Made by a program: the position numbers and the translations under genes. A stretch of DNA of 64,000 nucleotides from Rhodothermus sp. (GTDB taxonomy: Bacteria; Bacteroidota; Rhodothermia; Rhodothermales; Rhodothermaceae), in the NCBI GenBank assembly GCA_026989375.1, contig JALSJJ010000074.1:4850-68849 (forward strand). The letters run 5' to 3'. Shown here piece by piece: positions 12,133 to 47,844 of this stretch (position 1 is its first letter; each line of letters opens with the position of its first letter). The notes under the pieces were generated by a model. It was not told where the DNA came from. It made no database searches and saw only the letters and a program-made list of their open reading frames with translations.

Positions 12133-13091
12133 AGGAGGCCGTCTCTGCAAAGCCGGAACGTAACGACACCATGGCGGACGGATTCGGTTCGACGGCTTCG
12201 GTGCCGGCACTGCCGCGCTGGCGCATCTGGGTGCTGGCGGCGCGCCCCAAGACGCTGGCGGCAGCCGTAGCGCCGGTGCTGATGGGCACGGCCATGGCCT
12301 GGGCTGATGAAGGCTTCCATTGGCCTTCGGCGTTGCTGGCCCTGATCGGAGCCCTGCTCATTCAGATCGGGACAAACTTTGCCAACGATTACGCCGACTA
12401 CCTGAAGGGAGCCGATACGGCCACGCGCAAAGGGCCACTTCGGGTAACGGCGGCCGGCCTGGTAACGCCAGAGGCCATGCGGCGGGCTACGGCGCTGACG
12501 TTTGCGCTGGCCGTTGTGGCCGGACTTTACCTGATCTGGCGGGGCGGATGGCCGGTGCTGGCTATTGGAGTGCTTTCGATCCTCTTTGGCATCCTGTACA
12601 CGAGCGGGCGCTATGCGCTGGCCTATCTGGGACTGGGCGAGCTTTTCGTGCTCATCTTCTTCGGACCGGTGGCTGTGGGCGGTACCTATTACGTGCAGAC
12701 GCTCGCCATTACGGGGGAGGTGCTGCTGATGGGGTTGGCGCCGGGGCTGATTTCGACGGGCATCTTGCTGGTGAACAATGTGCGGGACATAGAGGAAGAT
12801 CGGCAAGCCGGGAAGCGAACGCCTGTGGTGCGCTTCGGACGCACCTTCGGGGTGGTGCTGTATGCTTGCTGCTTGCTGGGAGCGCTCTTGCTGCCGGTCG
12901 TCTGGTACCTGCTGACCTATCGGCATGGCGGTGCGATGGCCGTTCTGGCGTTGCTACCGGTCAGTGTACGCGCCATCTGGACGCTGGCGCGGGAGCGGGA
13001 GGGCACGGTGCTGAACGCGCTGCTGGCCGCTACCGGACGTCTGCTGCTGCTCTACAGTCTGCTGTTTTCGCTTGGGTGGATCCTGACCTGA
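12129..13091 (+). CDS. menA: 1,4-dihydroxy-2-naphthoate polyprenyltransferase
   Basis: AARPKTL, QIGTNFANDYADYLKGAD and NNVRDIEEDRQAGKRT UbiA-family motifs. Start GTG 12129 or ATG 12171. Confidence 0.93.
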   Translation: MKEAVSAKPERNDTMADGFGSTASVPALPRWRIWVLAARPKTLAAAVAPVLMGTAMAWADEGFHWPSALLALIGALLIQIGTNFANDYADYLKGADTATRKGPLRVTAAGLVTPEAMRRATALTFALAVVAGLYLIWRGGWPVLAIGVLSILFGILYTSGRYALAYLGLGELFVLIFFGPVAVGGTYYVQTLAITGEVLLMGLAPGLISTGILLVNNVRDIEEDRQAGKRTPVVRFGRTFGVVLYACCLLGALLLPVVWYLLTYRHGGAMAVLALLPVSVRAIWTLAREREGTVLNALLAATGRLLLLYSLLFSLGWILT

Positions 13092-37887: not shown

Positions 37888-38235
37888 TCAGGAGGAGGCC
37901 GTTGGGGGTGAGCCTGCCGTACCAAGGTCCTGCTCCAGGTAGTAATCGACGGCTTCGATGAACGTCTGCACTTTCTGACGCAGCACTTCTGGATGCTCCG
38001 GAAAGACAATACGGGTGCCGCTGCCACCCGGTGGTAGGGCCGGCATTTCAGCGGCCAGGGCGCTGAGCTGCTCACGCAGCAACTGTTGCGCTTCGCGCAG
38101 ATGAGCCAGCTCATGGGCCGTAGCGACCACACGATCCCGCAGTTGTTCCAGCGCTTCCAGACTACGTAGATGAACCGGACCTGTGCGGTGCGGCCGCCGA
38201 TGACGGCGGGACTTTTTGTTTTTCCGGTTACCCAT
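37888..38235 (-). CDS. Coiled-coil protein at the ZapB position
   Basis: Basic N-terminus then heptad-like LEALEQLRDRV..ELAHLREAQQLL; lies between pheT and zapA. Confidence 0.6.
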   Translation of the reverse strand: MGNRKNKKSRRHRRPHRTGPVHLRSLEALEQLRDRVVATAHELAHLREAQQLLREQLSALAAEMPALPPGGSGTRIVFPEHPEVLRQKVQTFIEAVDYYLEQDLGTAGSPPTASS

Positions 38236-38274
38236 GATTGTGTTTTGTTTCCGTGCCTGCAACAATATACGACC

Positions 38275-40752
38275 TCAACGCCGAAGTTGCGCCCCGAATT
38301 GTTGCTGGAGTTGCTGCACAATGGCCGCTACGTGGGCGTCGACTTCTTCATCGGTCAGGGTTCGGTCGGCGCCAAAACGCAGCGAAAACGCCACGCTTTT
38401 TTTGCCGACCGGGATGCGTTCGCCTTCGTACAGGTCGAAAACGCCCACGTAGCGAAGCAGATCACCACCGGTCTGGCGAATGGTTTCCAGCAGGGGGCCT
38501 ACGGGCTGATCACGGTCCACGAGCACTGCGAGGTCGCGGTCCACTTCAGGGAAACGACTGAAGGGGTGGTAGCGGTGTTGCTGGGCTGGATAGGCAAGCT
38601 CAGCAAATGCTTCCCAGTTCAGCTCCGCATAGTAAAGAGGGGCGCGTAGCTCATAGGTTGCCTGCAACGTATCAGAAAGACGCGCCAGCGTACCCAGCAC
38701 GCGCCCATCGGCTACCAGATTCATCTGATAGCTTGCGGTCGGCGCAGGGGAATCGCATGGCACCAGCGCAATGCGATCATTCAGGTGCAGTGTGTCGAGC
38801 AAGGTTTCGATCAGCCCTTTGAGGTCAAAGAAGTCGGTCAGGCGGGGCGTCACGTCCCATCCTTCAGGGGCGTGTGGACCGCTCAACCCAATGATGAGCG
38901 CTTCATGCTCGGCAAAGCCAGGTACGGGCGTATCGGTACGATCCGTACGCATGAAAACGCGGCCGAACTCGAAAAAGCGCAACACCTGCTGCCCCCGGTT
39001 CTGGTTGTAGACGGCAGTCTGGACCAGGCCGGGGAGCAGTGATGGACGCAGTACGGCCATTTCGGCCGAGATGGGGTTCAGGGTTTCAACCAGGTAGGCC
39101 GCCGTATTTTGATGATCGGTTACATTAGTGGGCACAAAGTGGCGGACCACCTCGCGGGGTAGCAGGCTGTTCGTGTAGATTTCCCGCAGGCCCATTCCGG
39201 CCAGTAGCGTACGCACGCGGCGACGCAAGGCCTGCGCTGGTGGTTCTGCAGGCACGCGTGCTGGTACGGTGAAGGCGTCGGGCATGGGCAGTCGATCGTA
39301 GCCATGCACCCGGGCTACCTCCTCAATCAGATCGATCTCTTCGGTTACATCCGGGCGATGAAGGGGCACCGTACAACGGAGGCGCTGTTCCTCGAGCGTC
39401 GGGGCAAAGCCCAGACGATGCAGGATTCGGATTACTTCGGCGGTCGGAATGTCGGTGCCCAGCACGCGAGCCAGACGAGGCAGGCGCAGCGTTACGGTTC
39501 GCGGCTCGAAACGCCGCATTTGCACATCTACAACACCGGGCACGATTTCACCGCCGGCTACTTCGACGATGAGCTGGGCTGCGCGGGCTGCTGCCCAGCG
39601 CTGCATTCCGGCATCAACGCCACGCTCAAATCGGTAGGACGAATCTGTTTGCAGGCCCAGGGCTTTGGCGGTGCGCCGAATTGTAGCGGGGTCGAAGTAG
39701 GCGCTTTCGATCAGGATGTTGGTGGTAGCCTCGGTTACTTCGGAGTTTTCTCCCCCCATGATACCGGCCAGGGCGACCGGGCGTTCGGCATCACAGATCA
39801 GCAGGGCGCCTTCAGGGAGCTGGCGTGTTTTCCCGTCAAGCGTGGTAAATTGTTCGCCAGTATGGGCCCATCGCACATGGATGCGTCCGCCCACCAGTCG
39901 GTCAAAGTCGAAAGCATGCAGTGGCTGGCCGCATTCGTGCAGCACATAGTTGGTTACGTCCACCACGTTGTTGATGGAGCGCAGCCCGATAGCGGCCAGG
40001 CGCTGGCGCAGCCAGAGGGGAGAGGGACCGATCTGCACGTTGCGAACCAGCAGCGCTACATAGCGAGGACAGGCCTCCGGGGCGTCGATGGTAACCTGGA
40101 CCTGCCGGGCAACTTCGCCGCCGGCTTCGGGCACAGACACGTCCGGGCGCTGCAGCGGTCGGTCGAGCAGGGCCGACAGATCGCGAGCCACGCCGATGTG
40201 GCTGGCCGCATCGGCTCGGTTGGGCGTCAGGCTGACCTCCAGCCGGTAATCAGGCACCTTCAGGCCCTGTCGGTACAGATATTCCGTAAAGGGTTGGCCT
40301 ACCGGTAGGTCGTCGGGCAGCACCAGGATGCCGCTGTGGTCGTCTGAGAGGCCGAGCTCGTCCTCGGCACAGATCATGCCTTCAGATACTTCGCCCCGGA
40401 TTTTCGTTTTGCGGATCGTTACGTGCTGGCGGTTGCCTTCCCGATCGGTCAGAAGCAGGGTGGTGCCGGGCGTAGCCACAGCGACCTTCTGGCCGGCGGC
40501 CACATTGGGCGCGCCGCACACGATAGATACCGGTGCTCCATCCCCGAGGTCAACCCGGCAGAGCGTCAGCCGGTCAGCGTTGGGGTGGGGACGCACTTCC
40601 AGGACCTGGCCGATCACGACGCCCCGCAGGTCGGTTCCCAGCGGCTCCACCTCTTCCACTTCCAGGCCCAGACCGATCAGGGCTTCGGCCAGCTCAGCAG
40701 GCGACAGGTCCAGTTCGATGTATTGCTGTAGCCAGCGGTAGGAGAGCTTCAT
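38275..40752 (-). CDS. pheT: Phenylalanine-tRNA ligase beta subunit
   Basis: HPNADRL, CGAPNV, TPNRAD, RFERGVD, C-terminal FDX-ACB RDLAVLV..KKSVAF. Confidence 0.97.
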   Translation of the reverse strand: MKLSYRWLQQYIELDLSPAELAEALIGLGLEVEEVEPLGTDLRGVVIGQVLEVRPHPNADRLTLCRVDLGDGAPVSIVCGAPNVAAGQKVAVATPGTTLLLTDREGNRQHVTIRKTKIRGEVSEGMICAEDELGLSDDHSGILVLPDDLPVGQPFTEYLYRQGLKVPDYRLEVSLTPNRADAASHIGVARDLSALLDRPLQRPDVSVPEAGGEVARQVQVTIDAPEACPRYVALLVRNVQIGPSPLWLRQRLAAIGLRSINNVVDVTNYVLHECGQPLHAFDFDRLVGGRIHVRWAHTGEQFTTLDGKTRQLPEGALLICDAERPVALAGIMGGENSEVTEATTNILIESAYFDPATIRRTAKALGLQTDSSYRFERGVDAGMQRWAAARAAQLIVEVAGGEIVPGVVDVQMRRFEPRTVTLRLPRLARVLGTDIPTAEVIRILHRLGFAPTLEEQRLRCTVPLHRPDVTEEIDLIEEVARVHGYDRLPMPDAFTVPARVPAEPPAQALRRRVRTLLAGMGLREIYTNSLLPREVVRHFVPTNVTDHQNTAAYLVETLNPISAEMAVLRPSLLPGLVQTAVYNQNRGQQVLRFFEFGRVFMRTDRTDTPVPGFAEHEALIIGLSGPHAPEGWDVTPRLTDFFDLKGLIETLLDTLHLNDRIALVPCDSPAPTASYQMNLVADGRVLGTLARLSDTLQATYELRAPLYYAELNWEAFAELAYPAQQHRYHPFSRFPEVDRDLAVLVDRDQPVGPLLETIRQTGGDLLRYVGVFDLYEGERIPVGKKSVAFSLRFGADRTLTDEEVDAHVAAIVQQLQQQFGAQLRR

Positions 40753-40754
40753 CG

Positions 40755-41777
40755 TTAAAACTGCTCCAGAAAACGCAGGTCGTTCTCGTAAAACAGACGA
40801 ATGTCCTCAATGCCGTAGCGTAGCATGGCGATGCGTTCGACGCCCATGCCAAACGCGTAGCCGGTATAGCGTTCGGGATCGATACCCACGGCACGAAACA
40901 CGTTGGGGTGTACCATGCCGCAGCCGAGGATTTCCATCCACTGGCCCCCTTCCGGATGGTCGGGCAGTGGCCACCAGATGTCTACCTCGGCACTGGGCTC
41001 GGTGAAGGGAAAGAAACTGGGGCGAAAACGCATGCGCACGTCCTCGCCAAAAAGCGCCCGGGCAAACAGGTACAACACCTGCTTCAGATCACCCATCGAC
41101 ACGTTGTGGTCTACGTAGAGACCTTCGACCTGATGAAACAGGCAGAACGACTTGTAGGAGACCGCTTCGTTGCGGTAGACACGGCCCGGTGCAATGATGC
41201 GGATAGGGGGAGGCGTTTGCTCCATCACCCGAATCTGCACAGGCGAGGTATGGGTGCGGAGCACAACCGCATCTCGGTAGGATGCCCCCTGACGCAGGAA
41301 GAAAGTATCCTGCATATCACGGGCCGGGTGGTCAGGAGGGAAGTTGAGGGCGGTGAAGTTGTGCCAGTCGTCTTCGATTTCAGGGCCTTCGGCGACCGAA
41401 AAACCAAGCTGTTCAAAGACGCGCACAATGGCCTCCAGCGTCTGGGTCAGCGGATGGAGCGAGCCGGTGAAAGCGCGGCGGCCTGGCAGCGTCAGGTCAG
41501 GTACTTCGGTACGGGGACGGGCTGCCTGGCGCAGGCGTGCGCGAGCTTCTTCCAGTCGCTGCTCGGCCAGGCGCTTCAGCGCATTCAACTGCTGACCGAT
41601 GCGGGGACGTTCTTCCGGAGGAACTTCCCGGATGCGTTTGAACAGGTGCGTGATCTGACCGCTTCGCTGTCCTAAGAAGCGAATGCGGAACGTCTCGGCC
41701 GCCTCCTCCGAGTCGATAGGCGTGTTTTCGATAGCGTGACGTAACGCTTCGAGTTCTTTTTGCATGGAGATCGCCAT
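40755..41777 (-). CDS. pheS: Phenylalanine-tRNA ligase alpha subunit
   Basis: [35 protein letters not shown]. Start 41777 (alt. 41765). Confidence 0.97.
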
Positions 41778-41788
41778 GGCGTGTCTGG

Positions 41789-41826
41789 AAATAAGAAAGC
41801 CCGCCGACCTGTAACAGGGGCGGGCT
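41789..41826 (-). terminator. Attenuator terminator upstream of pheS
   Basis: Minus strand AGCCCGCC-CCTG-TTA-CAGG-TC-GGCGGGCT followed by TTCTTATTT. Confidence 0.8.
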
Positions 41827-41857
41827 GGGGATGCCTGCAACACGTTCAGCGCCCCGG

Positions 41858-41911
41858 TTACAGGCCAGCGGCGCGAACGCGGAAAAATCGGATGGCACGC
41901 AACGGCTTCAT
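41858..41911 (-). CDS. pheST leader peptide (PheM-like), [17 protein letters not shown]
   Basis: ATG overlaps the rplT stop (ATGA); tandem TTT-TTC codons at 41887-41882; stop codon lies inside the antiterminator arm. Confidence 0.7.
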
Positions 41912-42255
41912 GCCGAAACAGCGCGTACGATCTGACGGAAAGTATTGGGATCATTAACCGCCAGATCGGCCAACACCTTGCGATTCAGTTGAATGTCTGC
42001 TTTACGAACCGCTCCCATAAAGCGGGAATAGGTGGTACCGTTCTGGCGGGCCGCCGCATTGATGCGGATGATCCACAACCGCCGAAACTGGCGCTTGCGC
42101 TGGCGGCGATCCCGGTAAGCATACTGGAGTGCCTTTTCTACGGCGTGTTTGGCAATCGTGTAAATCTTACTCCGCCGGCCCCAGTAGCCTTTTGCCATAT
42201 TCAAGATCTTCTTCCGCCGGCGGCGTGCTGCGACTTTATTTGTGGCTCGTGGCAT
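41908..42255 (-). CDS. rplT: 50S ribosomal protein L20
   Basis: [37 protein letters not shown]. Confidence 0.97.
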
Positions 42256-42275
42256 GACCCTCGCTTCCTCCAGAG

Positions 42276-42482
42276 TTATCGCTTCGGACCAATATGCAGC
42301 AGGCGCCGGATGCGGCCCACATCGGTTGCATCAACCAGGGCGCTCTGGCGCAGGTGACGTTTCCGTTTTTTGGATTTTTTGGTCAGCAGGTGGCTATGGA
42401 ATGCCCGCCGCCGTTTGATCTTACCGGTAGCGGTTACCTTGAATCGCTTTTTGGCCCCACTGTTTGTCTTAACTTTTGGCAT
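42276..42482 (-). CDS. rpmI: 50S ribosomal protein L35
   Basis: [31 protein letters not shown]. Confidence 0.96.
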
Positions 42483-42526
42483 AGCTTCTGTAACTGCTCC
42501 CCTTTCGCAATCCAAAAGAGGCTGCC

Positions 42527-42555
42527 ATTATACGATCCAGACCTCCTTTCGGCAA
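42527..42555 (-). promoter_or_regulatory. sigma70-like internal promoter for rpmI-rplT-pheST
   Basis: TTGCCG-N17-TATAAT on the minus strand between infC and rpmI. Confidence 0.75.
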
Positions 42556-42606
42556 GCAGATCCACAGCGTCTTCTATGGAAAGCAGAGGAATTTATAATG
42601 AAACGT

Positions 42607-43125
42607 TTATTTCTTCTTCGTTGGTGAGAGAATCACCGTCATCCGTCGGCCTTCCATTTTGGGTGGTTGGTCAATCTTGGCCACATCCTGCAGCGCCTCA
42701 ATAAACCGGCGTAGCAGATCCAGCCCAGCATCCTGGTAGATGATGTCCCGTCCCCGGAACTGCACCCACGCTTTTACCTTGTGCCCGTCTTCCAGGAAGT
42801 GACGGGCGTGGCGCGTCTTGAACTCGAAATCGTGGGTGTCTGTGTGGGGACGAAAACGAATCTCTTTAATCTGCTGGGCATGTTGCTTACGGCGCGCCTC
42901 CTTTTCTTTTTTCTGCTGTTCGTAGCGGAACTTGCCGTAATCGATAATTCTACAGACCGGTGGGTTTGCATTAGGGGCAACTTCCACCAGGTCCAGCCCG
43001 CGCTGGCGGGCCATTTCCAGTGCCGTTTGCAGATCGTAAATGCCATGTTGCCCTTCGGGGTCAACGACACGAACGCGAGGCGCGCGGATCTCTTCGTTGA
43101 CCCGGAATTTGTCTACCTTAGCGAT
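42607..43125 (-). CDS. infC: Translation initiation factor IF-3, non-canonical ATC start
   Basis: Frame extends 37 codons above the track's ATG (IAKVDKFRVNEEIRAPRVRVV...). No ATG/GTG/TTG before the in-frame TGA at 43164-43162. The ATC at 43125 follows AGGTAGGAG. Confidence 0.92.
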   Translation of the reverse strand: MAKVDKFRVNEEIRAPRVRVVDPEGQHGIYDLQTALEMARQRGLDLVEVAPNANPPVCRIIDYGKFRYEQQKKEKEARRKQHAQQIKEIRFRPHTDTHDFEFKTRHARHFLEDGHKVKAWVQFRGRDIIYQDAGLDLLRRFIEALQDVAKIDQPPKMEGRRMTVILSPTKKK

Positions 43126-43219
43126 AGCTCCTACCTGGTTTGGTTCATGGATACAACAACCTCAATCGGGGCGGACTCACGCACAGCACGCCCAGGAGTT
43201 CCATCCAGTTCAAGCAAAT

Positions 43220-45208
43220 TTAAGCGTTTTCCGAGACGGTTGCACGTTGCATAGCCGCTTCGATTTCGCCGTGCAGGTGCTTGATAAAGTCTTCGAGCGT
43301 GCTGGCCCCCAGATCGCCTTCCCCATGTTTGCGGACGGCCACAGTGCCAGCCTCACGCTCCCGACGACCTACGATCAGCATATAAGGAATCTTCTGGACC
43401 TCTGCCTGACGAATTTTATAGCCAATCGTTTCGGTGCGGGTATCGACTTCCACCCGGAAGCCGGCCTCGCGCAGGCGCTGGCCTACCGCTTCGGCGTAGT
43501 CGTTCAGTTCGTCACTTAATGGCAGCACAGCTATCTGCACCGGCGCCAGCCAGAGTGGGAAGTTGCCGGCGCAGTGTTCGATGAGCACGCCGATAAACCG
43601 CTCCAGGGAGCCAAACGGCGCGCGATGGATCATCACAGGGCGGTGCTTCTGGTTATCGGCCCCGATGTAATACAGGTCAAACCGTTCGGGCAGTACATAG
43701 TCGAGCTGAACGGTGCCGAGCTGCCAGCGGCGGCCCAGCGCGTCGCGCACCATGAAGTCGAGTTTGGGTCCGTAGAAAGCGGCTTCGCCGATTTCTTCCG
43801 TGGCCTGGAGGCCCATCTCCGCCGCTGCCTCACGAATGGCCTGCTCGGCCTGCTCCCAGAGCGCATCGTCGCCCACGTATTTTTCGCGGTTGTTCGGGTC
43901 GCGCAGGGAGATCTGTGCCTCGAACTCGTCGAAGCCCAGCGCCCGGAAAACGTAAAGCGTCAGGTCGATGACGTTTTTGAACTCTTCTTTGACCTGATCC
44001 GGCCGGCAGAAAATGTGAGCGTCATCGATGGTAAAACCACGCACGCGGGTCAACCCACTCAGCTCGCCCGTTTGCTCGTAGCGATAGACCTGGCCGAATT
44101 CGGCCAGCCGGAGCGGCAGCTCGCGGTAGGAGCGCGGGCGGTCCGCATAGATCATGATGTGGTGCGGACAGTTCATAGGTTTGAGCAGGTAGCCTTCACC
44201 CGTCTCCGGATCTTCGATCATGGGAGGGAACTGACTATCCTTGTAGTAGGGATAGTGCCCGCTCGTCCGGTACAGCTCCAGCCGACCGATGTGCGGCGTA
44301 ACGACCGGCTGATAGCCCCGCCGAATTTGCTCCTCCCGCAGGAACGTGATCAGCGTCTCGCGTAGCGTCGCGCCACGGGGCAACCAGAGTGGCAGGCCTG
44401 GTCCCACCTTCTGGCTGAAGGTGAACAGCTCCAGCTCCCGACCCAGCTTGCGATGATCGCGTTTGCGCGCCTCCTCGAGCCGGTGGAGGTATTCGTCCAG
44501 CTCTTTCTTTTTCGGGAAGCTGATGCCATAGATGCGGGTGAGCTGGGGACGGCGCTCATCGCCTCGCCAATACGCTCCAGCGATGTTGAGCAGTTTGACA
44601 TGTTTGATGTAGCCGGTCGAGGGCACGTGCGGGCCCCGGCACAGATCGGTGAAGTTGCCCTGTCGGTAAAAGGTGATCGTGCCGTCTTCCAGCTCTTCGA
44701 TCAGCTCGACTTTGTACGGATCGCCTTTTTTCCTGAAATACGCCAGCGCTTCTTCTTTGGAGACTGGAATGCGCTCGTAGGGCACGTCGCGGCGCGCCAG
44801 TTCTCGCATCTTTTCTTCGATGCGCGCCAGGTCTTCGGCCGAGAGTTTCCGGTCGCCCAGGTCGACGTCGTAGTAAAACCCCTGCTCAATGGGCGGTCCG
44901 ATGCCAAACTTAACACCCGGATAGAGCGCCTCCAGGGCTTCGGCCATCAGGTGGGCCGTCGAGTGCCAGTAGACGGCCTTGCCCTCCGGATCCTTCCAGG
45001 TCAGGAGGCGGACCCGTGCGTCCTCTTCGATCGGACGGCTCAAATCGCGCACCTCCCCGTTGACCTCAATGGCCAGCGCTTCACGGGCCAGACGGGGGGA
45101 GAGCTGTTCGGCCAGTTCGCGTCCGGTGATCCCCTTCGGAAACGTACGCTCCGAACCGTCCGGGAGTGTAATGCGAATAACGTCGGTCTGTCCGTTGCCT
45201 GCCATCAT
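43220..45208 (-). CDS. thrS: Threonine-tRNA ligase
   Basis: TGS domain, [35 protein letters not shown]. Start MMAGNG (45208/45205). Confidence 0.97.
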
Positions 45209-45351
45209 CTTTTTTTGGTTTGCACGGCCCTTTCTACCCCCGATTGCATAGGGATGCTCCCACATATCGACAGGTTGTAACCTGGCCCCGACGGTTTCCG
45301 TAGACCGAGCAGCTTCTACCCGCTCTAAGTTTATCGCCTTCCTTCTGCGAC

Positions 45352-47844
45352 ATGGTACGGCGTGGTTGTATGTGGATGGTGGCGCTGTGCTTGTGGCTGA
45401 CAGGGGCCCTTCAGGCGCAGCCGCAGCAAGCACCAACGCTACGCGCTGTACGGCTTACCGGTGCTCTAAAATTGGACGGCCATGTTGACGAAAGCGTCTG
45501 GCAAAAAGCCCCGGCTGCAACAGATTTCTGGCAGCGCGAACCGCACGACGGCCGGCCCGCCACCGAGCGCACAGAGGTGCGCGTGCTCTACGACAACGCA
45601 GCGCTTTACGTCGCATTTGTGTGCTACGACCGCAAGCCCAACCGGATTTTGCGACGGCTGGCCCGGCGCGACCGGGTGGTGCTGGCCGATTGGGTGGGCG
45701 TGCTGATCGACAGCTATCGAGATCGCAAGACGGCCTTTGCGTTCTTGATTAATGCGGCGGGCACGAAGGCGGACTTCCTGATTCTGAACGACGGCAACGC
45801 AGAAGATTTCAACTGGGACGCCCTCTGGGAGGCCCGTGTGGCCCTGCGGCCTGACGGCTGGAGCGCGGAATTTCTCATCCCGTTTACCGCGCTGCGCTTC
45901 AGCCAGGCCGACACGCTGCGCTGGGGGATCAACTTCGTCCGTATTATCGGACGCAAAAACGAGCAGGTTTTCTGGGCCTACGTGTCCCGCGCTACCGGTG
46001 GCTTTGTCTCCCGATTTGGCACGCTGGAGGGGCTCGAAGGCATCCGGCCGCCCCGCGCCCTGCTGGTAACGCCCTATGTGGTCGCAGCCGGCACGCACTG
46101 GAGCACCGACCGTACGCCGCAGTACCTGCATCCTCTCAGCCCGACGCTCCGGATGGGCGGCGACGTGCAGTACAGCCTGACCCACAATGCGGTCCTGAAT
46201 CTGACCATAAACCCCGATTTTGGCCAGGTCGAATTGGATGAAGTTGTGCTCAATCTGACCGCTTTTGAAACGTTCTACCCTGAAAAACGCCCGTTTTTTC
46301 TGGAAGGAACGTCAATTTTTCGAACAGTAGAGAGTGGCGGAGATGGAGCGCTACAGACCTATCTCTTTTATTCTCGACGGATTGGTCGCCAACCTCGCGG
46401 CTACTACAGTCTGCCTGACACTGGCAATGTCGAGGACTGGCGCATTGTGGAAAATCCGGCCGCCGTCCCCATCCTCGGAGCGGTCAAGCTAAGTGGGAAG
46501 ACAGCCGATGGCTGGGCCTTTGGTCTGCTGAATGCGCTCACGCAGCGCACCTATGCGACCTTTGAACACGTAAATGGCCGGCGGCAACGCATCCGAACGG
46601 AACCGCTGACCAACTATATGGTGGGACGGCTCCAGCGAGCACTGTCGGCACCGGGTTCCTATCTGGGGCTTATCGGGACGGCTACCTGGCGGGAGGACGG
46701 GACGGTACGCCAGGCGTACACGGGCGGCTTTGACTGGCGCTGGAATCCCTGGGACTATGGCCTGGTTACCGAAGGGCTTTTCTCTTTCAGCCGTCGCATG
46801 CGCCAGGCCGGACCACCTCAGGTAGGGTATCAGGGACAGGCACGAGTCGGATCGCTCCGGCATCCTTACGTAGTGGGCCTCGTGGGCGCCAATTTTGCCA
46901 CCCGGGATTACGATCCCAACGATGTGGGCTTTCACACAATGACCAACTTTGCCGTTACCTATATCTGGATGCAATGGCGCTATCTGCGTCCCTGGGGTCC
47001 GCTATTGCAGGGGCGCCTGAATCAGAACTACTGGTGGATGTATCGGCTGGCCCCCTGGCTGCTCCTGAGCCGGGGAATCAGCCCGAACCTGCACCTGCAA
47101 TGGCGGAACTTCTGGTGGACCCGACTGGGGCTCAACCTGGAATCTGAAGGCTGGGATCTGTACGAATCGCGCGGGGGCGGGCTGTTTCGCAGTCCGCGAC
47201 GCTGGAACGTCTGGGTTTCCGTGAACACGGACGAGCGTCGGACGGTCGTGCTGTCCGTCTCCCTGAACCGACAGGCCGATCGGTATGGAGGGCGCGTTTG
47301 GGGAGGCAGCATCGGGTCGGTGGTGCGTTTCGGTGAGCGCACCGACCTGAGCCTGGACCTCGGCATGCGCTTCCGCCGACGCGAAGTGGCCTGGGCACAG
47401 AATGTACCTGATATGGAGGCACCTGGTGTTACCACCAGCGTGTTCGGACGGCGCGATGTTGATCGCATCAGTCTGACACTTCGAGGCGCGCACACGTTCA
47501 CGCGCGATCTGACGTTGCAGGGCTATCTGCAATGGTTCTGGGCGCGGGGGCACTACCGGGATTTTCAGAAGCTGGGCGATGACGGACGCCTGGTGCCCCT
47601 GCCGGTGCCGTATGACCGGGACCGCTACGGCAATCCGGATTTTCAGCAGGGCACGTTGAACATCAATGTGATCCTGCGCTATGAGTACCGGCTGGGCTCG
47701 ACGCTGTACGTGGTCTGGACCTGGGGCCAGCAGGCCTGGAGTGATCAGGGAAGCGCGGATTCATGGCGCTTTGCGTGGCGCACGCTACGGCGCTCGCCGA
47801 CCAGTGTGCTGCTGGTGAAATGGACCTATACCTGGGGCTTCTGA
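45352..47844 (+). CDS. Exported DUF5916-like protein (N-terminal CBM9-like sugar-binding domain, probable C-terminal beta-barrel)
   Basis: Signal peptide; [11 protein letters not shown]+[19 protein letters not shown] and [12 protein letters not shown] motifs; ends in KWTYTWGF. Confidence 0.75.

Follow-up and report, generated by a model that had tools for sequence, protein, structure and literature searches.

In Escherichia coli, pheST-ihfA is reportedly governed by an attenuator with the leader peptide gene pheM, an element said to have been worked out by Fayat, Springer, Grunberg-Manago and colleagues in the 1980s. E. coli pheM has its own promoter. The locus described here, from a Rhodothermus genome, shares with it the location at the rplT-pheS junction, a short leader containing Phe codons, a terminator just before pheS and an antiterminator that depends on the position of the ribosome. 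It differs in other respects: five of the 14 pheM codons encode Phe, as opposed to two here, at codons 9-10 after a CGA, and the Rhodothermus leader starts in overlap with the rplT stop and has no 1:2 hairpin. Similar layouts occur in the classical four-segment leader-peptide attenuators trpL, hisL, pheL, thrL, leuL and ilvL. Some relatives of Rhodothermus, but not Rhodothermus itself, share their complete arrangement, in which a 1:2 hairpin follows the regulatory codons and is joined by a 2:3 antiterminator and a 3:4 terminator (L010-L012, L023, L024, L052 and L085, among others). Whereas the classical elements stand at the start of biosynthetic operons, the element in the order Rhodothermales lies inside a longer transcription unit and precedes an aminoacyl-tRNA synthetase operon. 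The T-boxes of Firmicutes pheS genes have in common with it the regulated gene, the signal (tRNA-Phe charging) and the output (terminator versus antiterminator), but they bind uncharged tRNA directly and need no translation. The L20 leader (RF00558), in turn, sits upstream of infC/rpmI-rplT, whereas the Rhodothermus element is downstream of rplT. Taken with sequence comparison and folding models, the layout makes it likely that the element is a ribosome-mediated leader-peptide transcription attenuator, which would set read-through from rplT into pheST by the supply of charged tRNA-Phe.

The window, the whole 64,000-nucleotide stretch of DNA analysed here, carries on its minus strand the genes thrS (45436-43220), infC (between thrS and rpmI), rpmI (42515-42276) and rplT, which encodes ribosomal protein L20 (42255-41908) and is the last gene of thrS-infC-rpmI-rplT. 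The regulated gene pheS (41777-40755, with its ATG at 41777) and pheT (40752-38275) follow downstream on the same strand, all as given in the list of open reading frames, and the gap between rplT and pheS is 130 nt. Two of the upstream genes have unusual starts. The listed thrS frame begins with TTG and carries an N-terminal extension of ~85 amino acids that is poorly ThrRS-like (45436-45200, minus strand); the true start is probably internal, leaving ~250 nt of possible leader upstream of thrS. The infC (IF3) frame stays open for ~38 codons upstream of its first ATG at 43014 (43014-43130, minus strand), and this stretch encodes a typical IF3 N-terminal sequence (KFRVNEEIRAPRVRVVD...) with no ATG, GTG or TTG in it. 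As with E. coli infC, which has an autoregulated AUU start, translation probably begins at an AUN (Ile) codon.

Within the rplT-pheS gap, the leader frame comprises 17 codons plus TAA (41911-41858, minus strand), as defined by the sequence, the reading-frame list and comparison with relatives. Its ATG (41911-41909) overlaps the TGA stop of rplT (41910-41908) as ATGA, and its own TAA lies at 41860-41858. An earlier note, made from the sequence alone, had proposed a frame of 17 amino acids at the rplT stop with tandem Phe codons, and the sequence bears this out, on the minus strand. The alignment of leaders delimits the sensor codons as CGA UUU UUC (R8 F9 F10; 41890-41882, minus strand), in which the Phe codons UUU UUC, codons 9 and 10, occupy 41887-41882. 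The motif is single-copy in the Rhodothermus genome to which the window belongs.

The leader is followed by an intrinsic terminator (41826-41789, minus strand), defined by folds and RNAalifold, with an 8-bp GC stem, an inner stem and a U-run. Its parts are AGCCCGCC (41826-41819), the inner stem CCUG/CAGG, GGCGGGCU (41805-41798) and then UUCUUAUUU (41797-41789). It ends 12 nt before the pheS ATG, where the earlier note had also placed a terminator with a U-rich tail. A simple terminator scan detects the inner part only, and we discarded it as stand-alone evidence, with 10 sites against 8.6 in shuffles. Mutually exclusive with this terminator is an antiterminator hairpin. Its 5′ strand, supported by folds, alignment pairing and a duplex test, consists of the last leader codons, the TAA stop and GGGGCG (41871-41847, minus strand). 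Its 3′ strand consists, in the folds, of the terminator 5′ arm, the loop and, in Rhodothermus, part of the 3′ arm (41827-41801, minus strand). At the core, GGCCUGUAAC-C-GGGGCG-CUG (41866-41847) pairs with CAG-CC-CGCCCC-U-GUUACAGGUC (41827-41806). Between the strands, the minimum-energy fold contains a small central hairpin (41843-41831, minus strand); a hairpin recurs at this place in other lineages, with a different sequence.

Folding of 41915-41770 gives the long antiterminator hairpin as the structure of minimum energy, at -64.3 kcal/mol; it pairs 41871-41847 with 41827-41801 and lies at z = -3.0 relative to dinucleotide shuffles, of which 1 in 200 folds as well. Sequence and fold thus agree with the proposal of the earlier note that the 3′ end of the leader pairs with the left arm and loop of the terminator. 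The Rhodothermus hairpin is extended by pairing of 41871-41857 with 41815-41801, with most of the terminator 3′ arm (41805-41801) sequestered, and it stops 3 nt short of the terminator stem end and 2-3 nt from the U-run; two members of the genus carry a mismatch in the extension. Judged from the folds, such a long hairpin abutting the U-run might itself terminate to some extent in untranslated Rhodothermus RNA. With G and C atop the RNA-DNA hybrid, however, the extended hairpin is expected to be a poor terminator.

We modelled the ribosome as an unpaired mask reaching out to 13 nt beyond the first base of the A-site codon. With F10 (41884-41882) in the A site, the leading edge falls at ~41872-41869 and the strand 41866-41847 is free; with TAA (41860-41858) in the A site, the ribosome covers ~41872-41845, the whole antiterminator strand. 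The leader RNA of the window folds as antiterminator both without a ribosome and with one stalled at F10 (terminator probability 0.00 in each case), and as terminator, at -17.8 kcal/mol, with the ribosome at the stop codon (terminator probability 1.00). These masked folds reproduce the geometry that the earlier note had read from the letters, in which a stall at FF frees the antiterminator and a ribosome at the stop masks it.

To see how far this arrangement extends, we collected the rplT neighbourhoods of 40 relatives from 27 families of the order and then of 20 more genera. L20 homologues are present in all relatives searched, and a PheS homologue lies downstream of rplT in nearly all of them. 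The leader is present in ~18 of the 24 Rhodothermales families inspected, and it is kept in 7/7 Rhodothermus genomes despite substitutions at codons 2-7. The gap in most families contains a short frame with a nearly invariant CGA UUU UUY (R-F-F), a stop codon and a terminator; examples of the encoded peptides are MIGCPAYQRFFGRPAPSL, MTPSPLHRFFTGSLLLGL, MPHPQGHRFFTVTLSRQGR, MTLPASIRFFTFAFPN, MSQRQTQRFFFLRPSFL and MSRRYKQLRFFSRHPSFL. In 33/33 distinct leaders, an in-frame start stands 18-27 nt (6-9 codons) before the CGA, mostly at 21 nt (7 codons), and in these 33 leaders an in-frame stop follows 8-14 codons after the R. The start is ATG, with GTG in L045 and L094. No residue conservation is seen between the start and R-F, and the leaders differ in length by multiples of three only. 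One lineage (L084) has CGT TTC TTT, the only synonymous variant observed, which speaks for a role of the amino acids or codon identities beyond that of a mere RNA motif. The leader stop codon lies inside or adjoins the GGGGCG strand, whose complement is the invariant CCCGCCCC of the terminator arm, and the terminator sequence itself is almost invariant, consisting of CCCGCCCCUG...CAGG..GGCGGG and a U-run. When the earlier note asked for a check of the FF codons and the pairing across relatives, the answer is that R-F(F), the stop position, the terminator and the alternative pairing are all kept across the order.

Two insertions were seen at the downstream side of the element. One Rhodothermus species (L003, positions 1848-2396, and L040) has ~410 nt of GC-rich, hairpin-rich DNA between terminator and pheS, and its rplT-pheS gap is 544 nt, as opposed to ~130, with leader and terminator intact. 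In L014 (about 1990-2750), eight tandem GGGTCTTG repeats and a ~120-amino-acid frame resembling a 'four-helix-bundle / 23S rRNA intervening sequence' protein (MSRTNFENLEVYQKAEEL...) are inserted after the attenuator, and pheS lies 874 nt from rplT.

The overlap of leader start and rplT stop is found in Rhodothermus and in L009/L080, L081, L085 and L094 (TAGTG), representing three to four other families. In these, the overlap would make translation of the leader nearly obligatory. In most families 14-100 nt separate the rplT stop from the leader start, so coupling to L20 is not part of the conserved mechanism; the suggestion of the earlier note that leader translation is coupled to L20 synthesis is therefore retained for Rhodothermus and a few other families and given up for the rest of the order.

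Not every family carries the leader. In our sample, six families (f3, f5, f9, f13, f18 and f27) are represented by leaderless genomes only, and leaderless genera also occur within f2, f4, f16, f24 and f26. These genomes keep the terminator, except for L097 (f3), in which pheS does not follow rplT, and L082 (f26), which has a 56-nt gap without a hairpin and U-run. About a quarter to a third of the sampled Rhodothermales families thus have a terminator without the leader, which counts against the attenuator reading. It fits instead a constitutive partial terminator that lowers transcription of pheST relative to the highly expressed ribosomal protein genes, with the frame conserved through the overlapping RNA. 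Not only several Rhodothermales families but also sister orders and other Bacteroidota have just a hairpin and U-run with no leader, and a bare terminator is evidently workable since leaderless lineages retain one. Such a terminator would, however, explain neither the fixed distance of an in-frame start across codons that are not conserved, nor indels restricted to multiples of three, nor an invariant Phe codon, nor a stop codon sited at the strand complementary to the terminator arm, and we regard this explanation as improbable.

Support for the pairings themselves comes from several comparisons. In the terminator consensus, RNAalifold finds covariation at the two bottom pairs (A-U/G-C and U-A/G-C/A-U). 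When the antiterminator pairing taken from the window sequence is scored on the alignment, standard pairs fill 81.5% of cells, as opposed to 37-49% when the partners are slid by 1-3 columns. Strict covariation of the antiterminator in the MAFFT alignment is weak, with column shuffles nearly matching the observed values, because the GGGGCG:CGCCCC core never varies. We consider a duplex test, which uses the variable flanks, more informative than counting strict covariation, and its outcome is clearer: the stop-codon region pairs with the terminator arm and loop of its own lineage at a mean of -22.0 kcal/mol, against -19.9 kcal/mol across lineages, the own-lineage mean being reached by 1 of 50,000 permutations (29 lineages). 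A smaller run of 22 lineages gave 4 of 20,000 permutations. These statistics are supportive and not proof, as related lineages are not independent. Individual matched changes can also be followed, such as CCUGUAAC:GUUACAGG in Rhodothermus, which becomes CCUGUAAU:AUUACAGG in L084, and, in family f4, a terminator arm CCGCCU facing a leader strand AGGCGG (L091). The compensatory changes called for by the earlier note were accordingly found in part, as two terminator pairs and as lineage-specific antiterminator complementarity, and strict covariation of the antiterminator fell short.

The balance between the two structures differs among lineages. Equilibrium folds of the full leaders are mixed, with the terminator winning in every ribosome state in roughly half of the lineages. 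In lineages where it wins thermodynamically in all ribosome states, switching has to be kinetic; Rhodothermales leaders often have the terminator as their most stable structure, as does E. coli trp. Because of this mixed result, we also folded transcripts truncated just before the terminator 3′ arm, which mimic the RNA at the point where the decision falls. When the ribosome occupies FF, the terminator 5′ arm is paired upstream in 25/26 lineages (P = 0.58-0.99), the exception being L008, which has a shifted register; with the ribosome at the stop, upstream pairing of the 5′ arm drops to P = 0.03-0.62.

Two architectures can be distinguished. In architecture 1 (L011-L014, L022-L024, L038, L048, L052, L085 and L090), a 1:2 hairpin joins the codons right after FF with the stop-codon region. 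RNAalifold finds compensatory changes in 4 of its 12 pairs, among them UUC...GAA against GUU...AAC, with which the stop alternates between UGA and UAA. Together with the antiterminator and terminator, this hairpin completes the classical four-segment layout, and untranslated RNA of this architecture should, according to the folding model, terminate. In architecture 2, which includes Rhodothermus, there is no 1:2 hairpin and the untranslated RNA folds as antiterminator. The ATGA-type overlap of the leader start with the rplT stop does not strictly follow the architecture group.

The most constant feature of the leader is the codon pair CGA-UUU, and CGATTT is invariant in an alignment (A1) of 26 leaders. 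In long reading frames of the genome to which the window belongs (59% G+C), CGA makes up 11% of Arg codons and UUU 48% of Phe codons. The tRNA-Arg anticodons found in this 96% complete genome are ACG, CCG, CCU and UCU only; tRNA-Arg(UCG) was not found in it, so CGA must be decoded via I:A wobble by the ACG tRNA in its inosine-modified form. In E. coli, decoding through the I:A pair is reportedly of low efficiency (Curran 1995, Nucleic Acids Res). In yeast, I:A wobble underlies inhibitory CGA-containing codon pairs. A single tRNA-Phe, with anticodon GAA, was found, and UUU is read here only via G:U wobble by this tRNA. We tentatively put forward, as an idea that is more doubtful than probable, that the invariant CGA-UUU pair is a built-in sensitiser, in which CGA in the P site slows decoding of the next Phe codon. 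If true, one or two Phe codons, always at positions 9-10, would suffice for a leader to respond to tRNA-Phe charging, and it would be a bacterial regulatory use of the 'inhibitory codon pair' of the yeast type.

The same codon pair raises the question of specificity. There are two Phe codons among the 17 of the window leader, and one to four in relatives; some lineages have a single-Phe leader (RFM, RFT, RFS or RFC), and Phe-richer leaders are AFFFF in L029, FRFAFAF in L020 and RFFTFAF in L011/L012/L024. Because the window leader has two Phe codons, and some lineages one, specificity for Phe stands out less than it does in classical leaders. The element could instead sense the status of translation, so that any slowing of the ribosome opens the antiterminator and couples pheST to the ribosomes leaving rplT; the slowing could stem from the I:A-decoded CGA, general starvation or lost transcription-translation coupling. 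That the most invariant element is the CGA-UUU pair and not a Phe run, that several lineages make do with one Phe codon and that untranslated Rhodothermus RNA folds as antiterminator would all suit such a sensor. The first Phe codon, however, is invariant in RF(F)-type leaders and the second is present in most; Phe codons recur in divergent leaders, ahead of genes for Phe-tRNA synthetase; the Phe content is expanded in the Phe-richer leaders just named; and the motif occurs nowhere else in the window's own genome. On this evidence, a sensor indifferent to Phe has little probability.

A different kind of reading would take the conserved RNA as a binding site for a protein or a tRNA, such as an L20 autoregulatory site, a T-box-like sensor of tRNA-Phe or another riboswitch, with the frame incidental. 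The invariance of CCCGCCCC, GGCGGG and CGAUUU across the order is unusual for a plain terminator and would be in keeping with a binding site. A cmscan of 38000-46000 against Rfam 15 at E<=10, however, found no Phe_leader (RF01859), T-box (RF00230) or L20_leader (RF00558), nor a match to any other gene-control family; the matches were chance microRNA, small-RNA and other unrelated ones. Moreover, the element lies downstream of rplT, where L20 feedback has nothing of its own to control, and its frame has a coding signature, which speaks against it being incidental. We hold a binding site to be very unlikely. The scan also bears on the term 'PheM-like' used by the earlier note, which is apt for function and position and does not extend to family membership, as the Rhodothermus element has no detectable sequence or structure homology to the Rfam Phe_leader at E<=10.

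Leader-peptide attenuation by Phe supply is the reading that we prefer, and three structural features of that attenuator class are found here: a short predicted frame with cognate codons, a terminator before pheS and a mutually exclusive antiterminator at the 3′ end of the leader. The analysis documents this anatomy, its conservation and a thermodynamic switch in silico; stalling at the Phe codons, kinetic competition and actual regulation by Phe are what we infer. RNA polymerase coming from rplT would transcribe the 17-codon leader, which in Rhodothermus would be translated by ribosomes that have just finished L20, given that its ATG overlaps the rplT stop (ATGA). When Phe-tRNA is plentiful, the ribosome would reach TAA and cover the GGCCUGUAACCGGGGCG strand; the terminator would then fold and transcription would end at the U-run, 12-20 nt before pheS. 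When Phe-tRNA is scarce, the ribosome would stall with UUU/UUC (codons 9-10) in the A site, ~18 nt upstream of the GGCCUGUAACCGGGGCG strand. This strand, left free, would pair with the emerging terminator 5′ arm and loop, and with the terminator blocked the polymerase would go on into pheS-pheT. The CGA ahead of the Phe codon may slow the ribosome, making a sensor of one or two Phe codons responsive.

Among the genomes sampled, the leader is confined to Rhodothermales. A strict pattern (CGATTTTT and CCCGCCCCTG 40-70 nt apart, then GGCGGG after a further 6-28 nt), run on one genome per species across 185,579 species, gave 28 matches, of which 16 lie between rplT and pheS. These 16 are all in genomes labelled Rhodothermales, Rhodothermia, Rhodothermus or 'Bacteroidetes bacterium'. 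The remaining 12, in Rhodobacterales, Desulfacinum, Streptomyces, Anaerolineae and others, have neither rplT nor pheS nearby and are chance matches. No Phe leader was found in 20 genomes of other families of the same class (L059-L078), probably Balneolales and relatives, which have rplT, a hairpin with U-run and pheS, nor in 20 families from the rest of the phylum (L099-L118), which have a plain terminator or hardly any gap, or in which pheS does not follow rplT. In these two leaderless sets, a strong hairpin and U-run mostly still stands between rplT and pheS. At the level of sequence, what settles that the feature exceeds chance is this comparison with relatives and not the single sequence. 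An origin independent of E. coli pheM seems likely, being the simpler account given that the Phe_leader model does not match and that the intervening sampled lineages are without the element.

Of the Phe loci checked in the window's own genome (pheA and pheST), only pheST has a Phe leader. The pheA gene, for prephenate dehydratase (contig C75, ~12870-12885), has none and starts 4 nt past the argS stop (ATGTAGTCATGG). The trpE candidate of this genome sits at the edge of a contig. A crude genome-wide screen of the same genome for further leader-peptide attenuators returned noise only. A literature search found no description of a pheST leader in Rhodothermales, Salinibacter or Bacteroidota; an article by Vitreschak et al. 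in 2004 (FEMS Microbiol Lett) is said to mention attenuators in Bacteroidetes/Chlorobi.

The mechanism is a textbook one; the novelty lies in the lineage, in the unrelated sequence and in the conserved CGA-UUU sensor. Rfam 15 lacks the element, which merits its own family and annotation, as genome annotations based on Rfam will not name the leader. The earlier note describes the leader as absent from the ORF track. The rare CGA before one or two Phe codons offers a handle on how few regulatory codons an attenuator needs and on tuning by codon pairs. Rhodothermus marinus grows near 65 °C, a growth temperature that makes the element a natural test case for the kinetics of RNA switches at high temperature. 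For the Rhodothermales, an order of the FCB group, the finding would mean that an essential aminoacyl-tRNA synthetase is controlled by classical ribosome-sensing attenuation through an element unrelated in sequence to that of E. coli, and it adds a case of apparently convergent evolution at the rplT-pheS junction.
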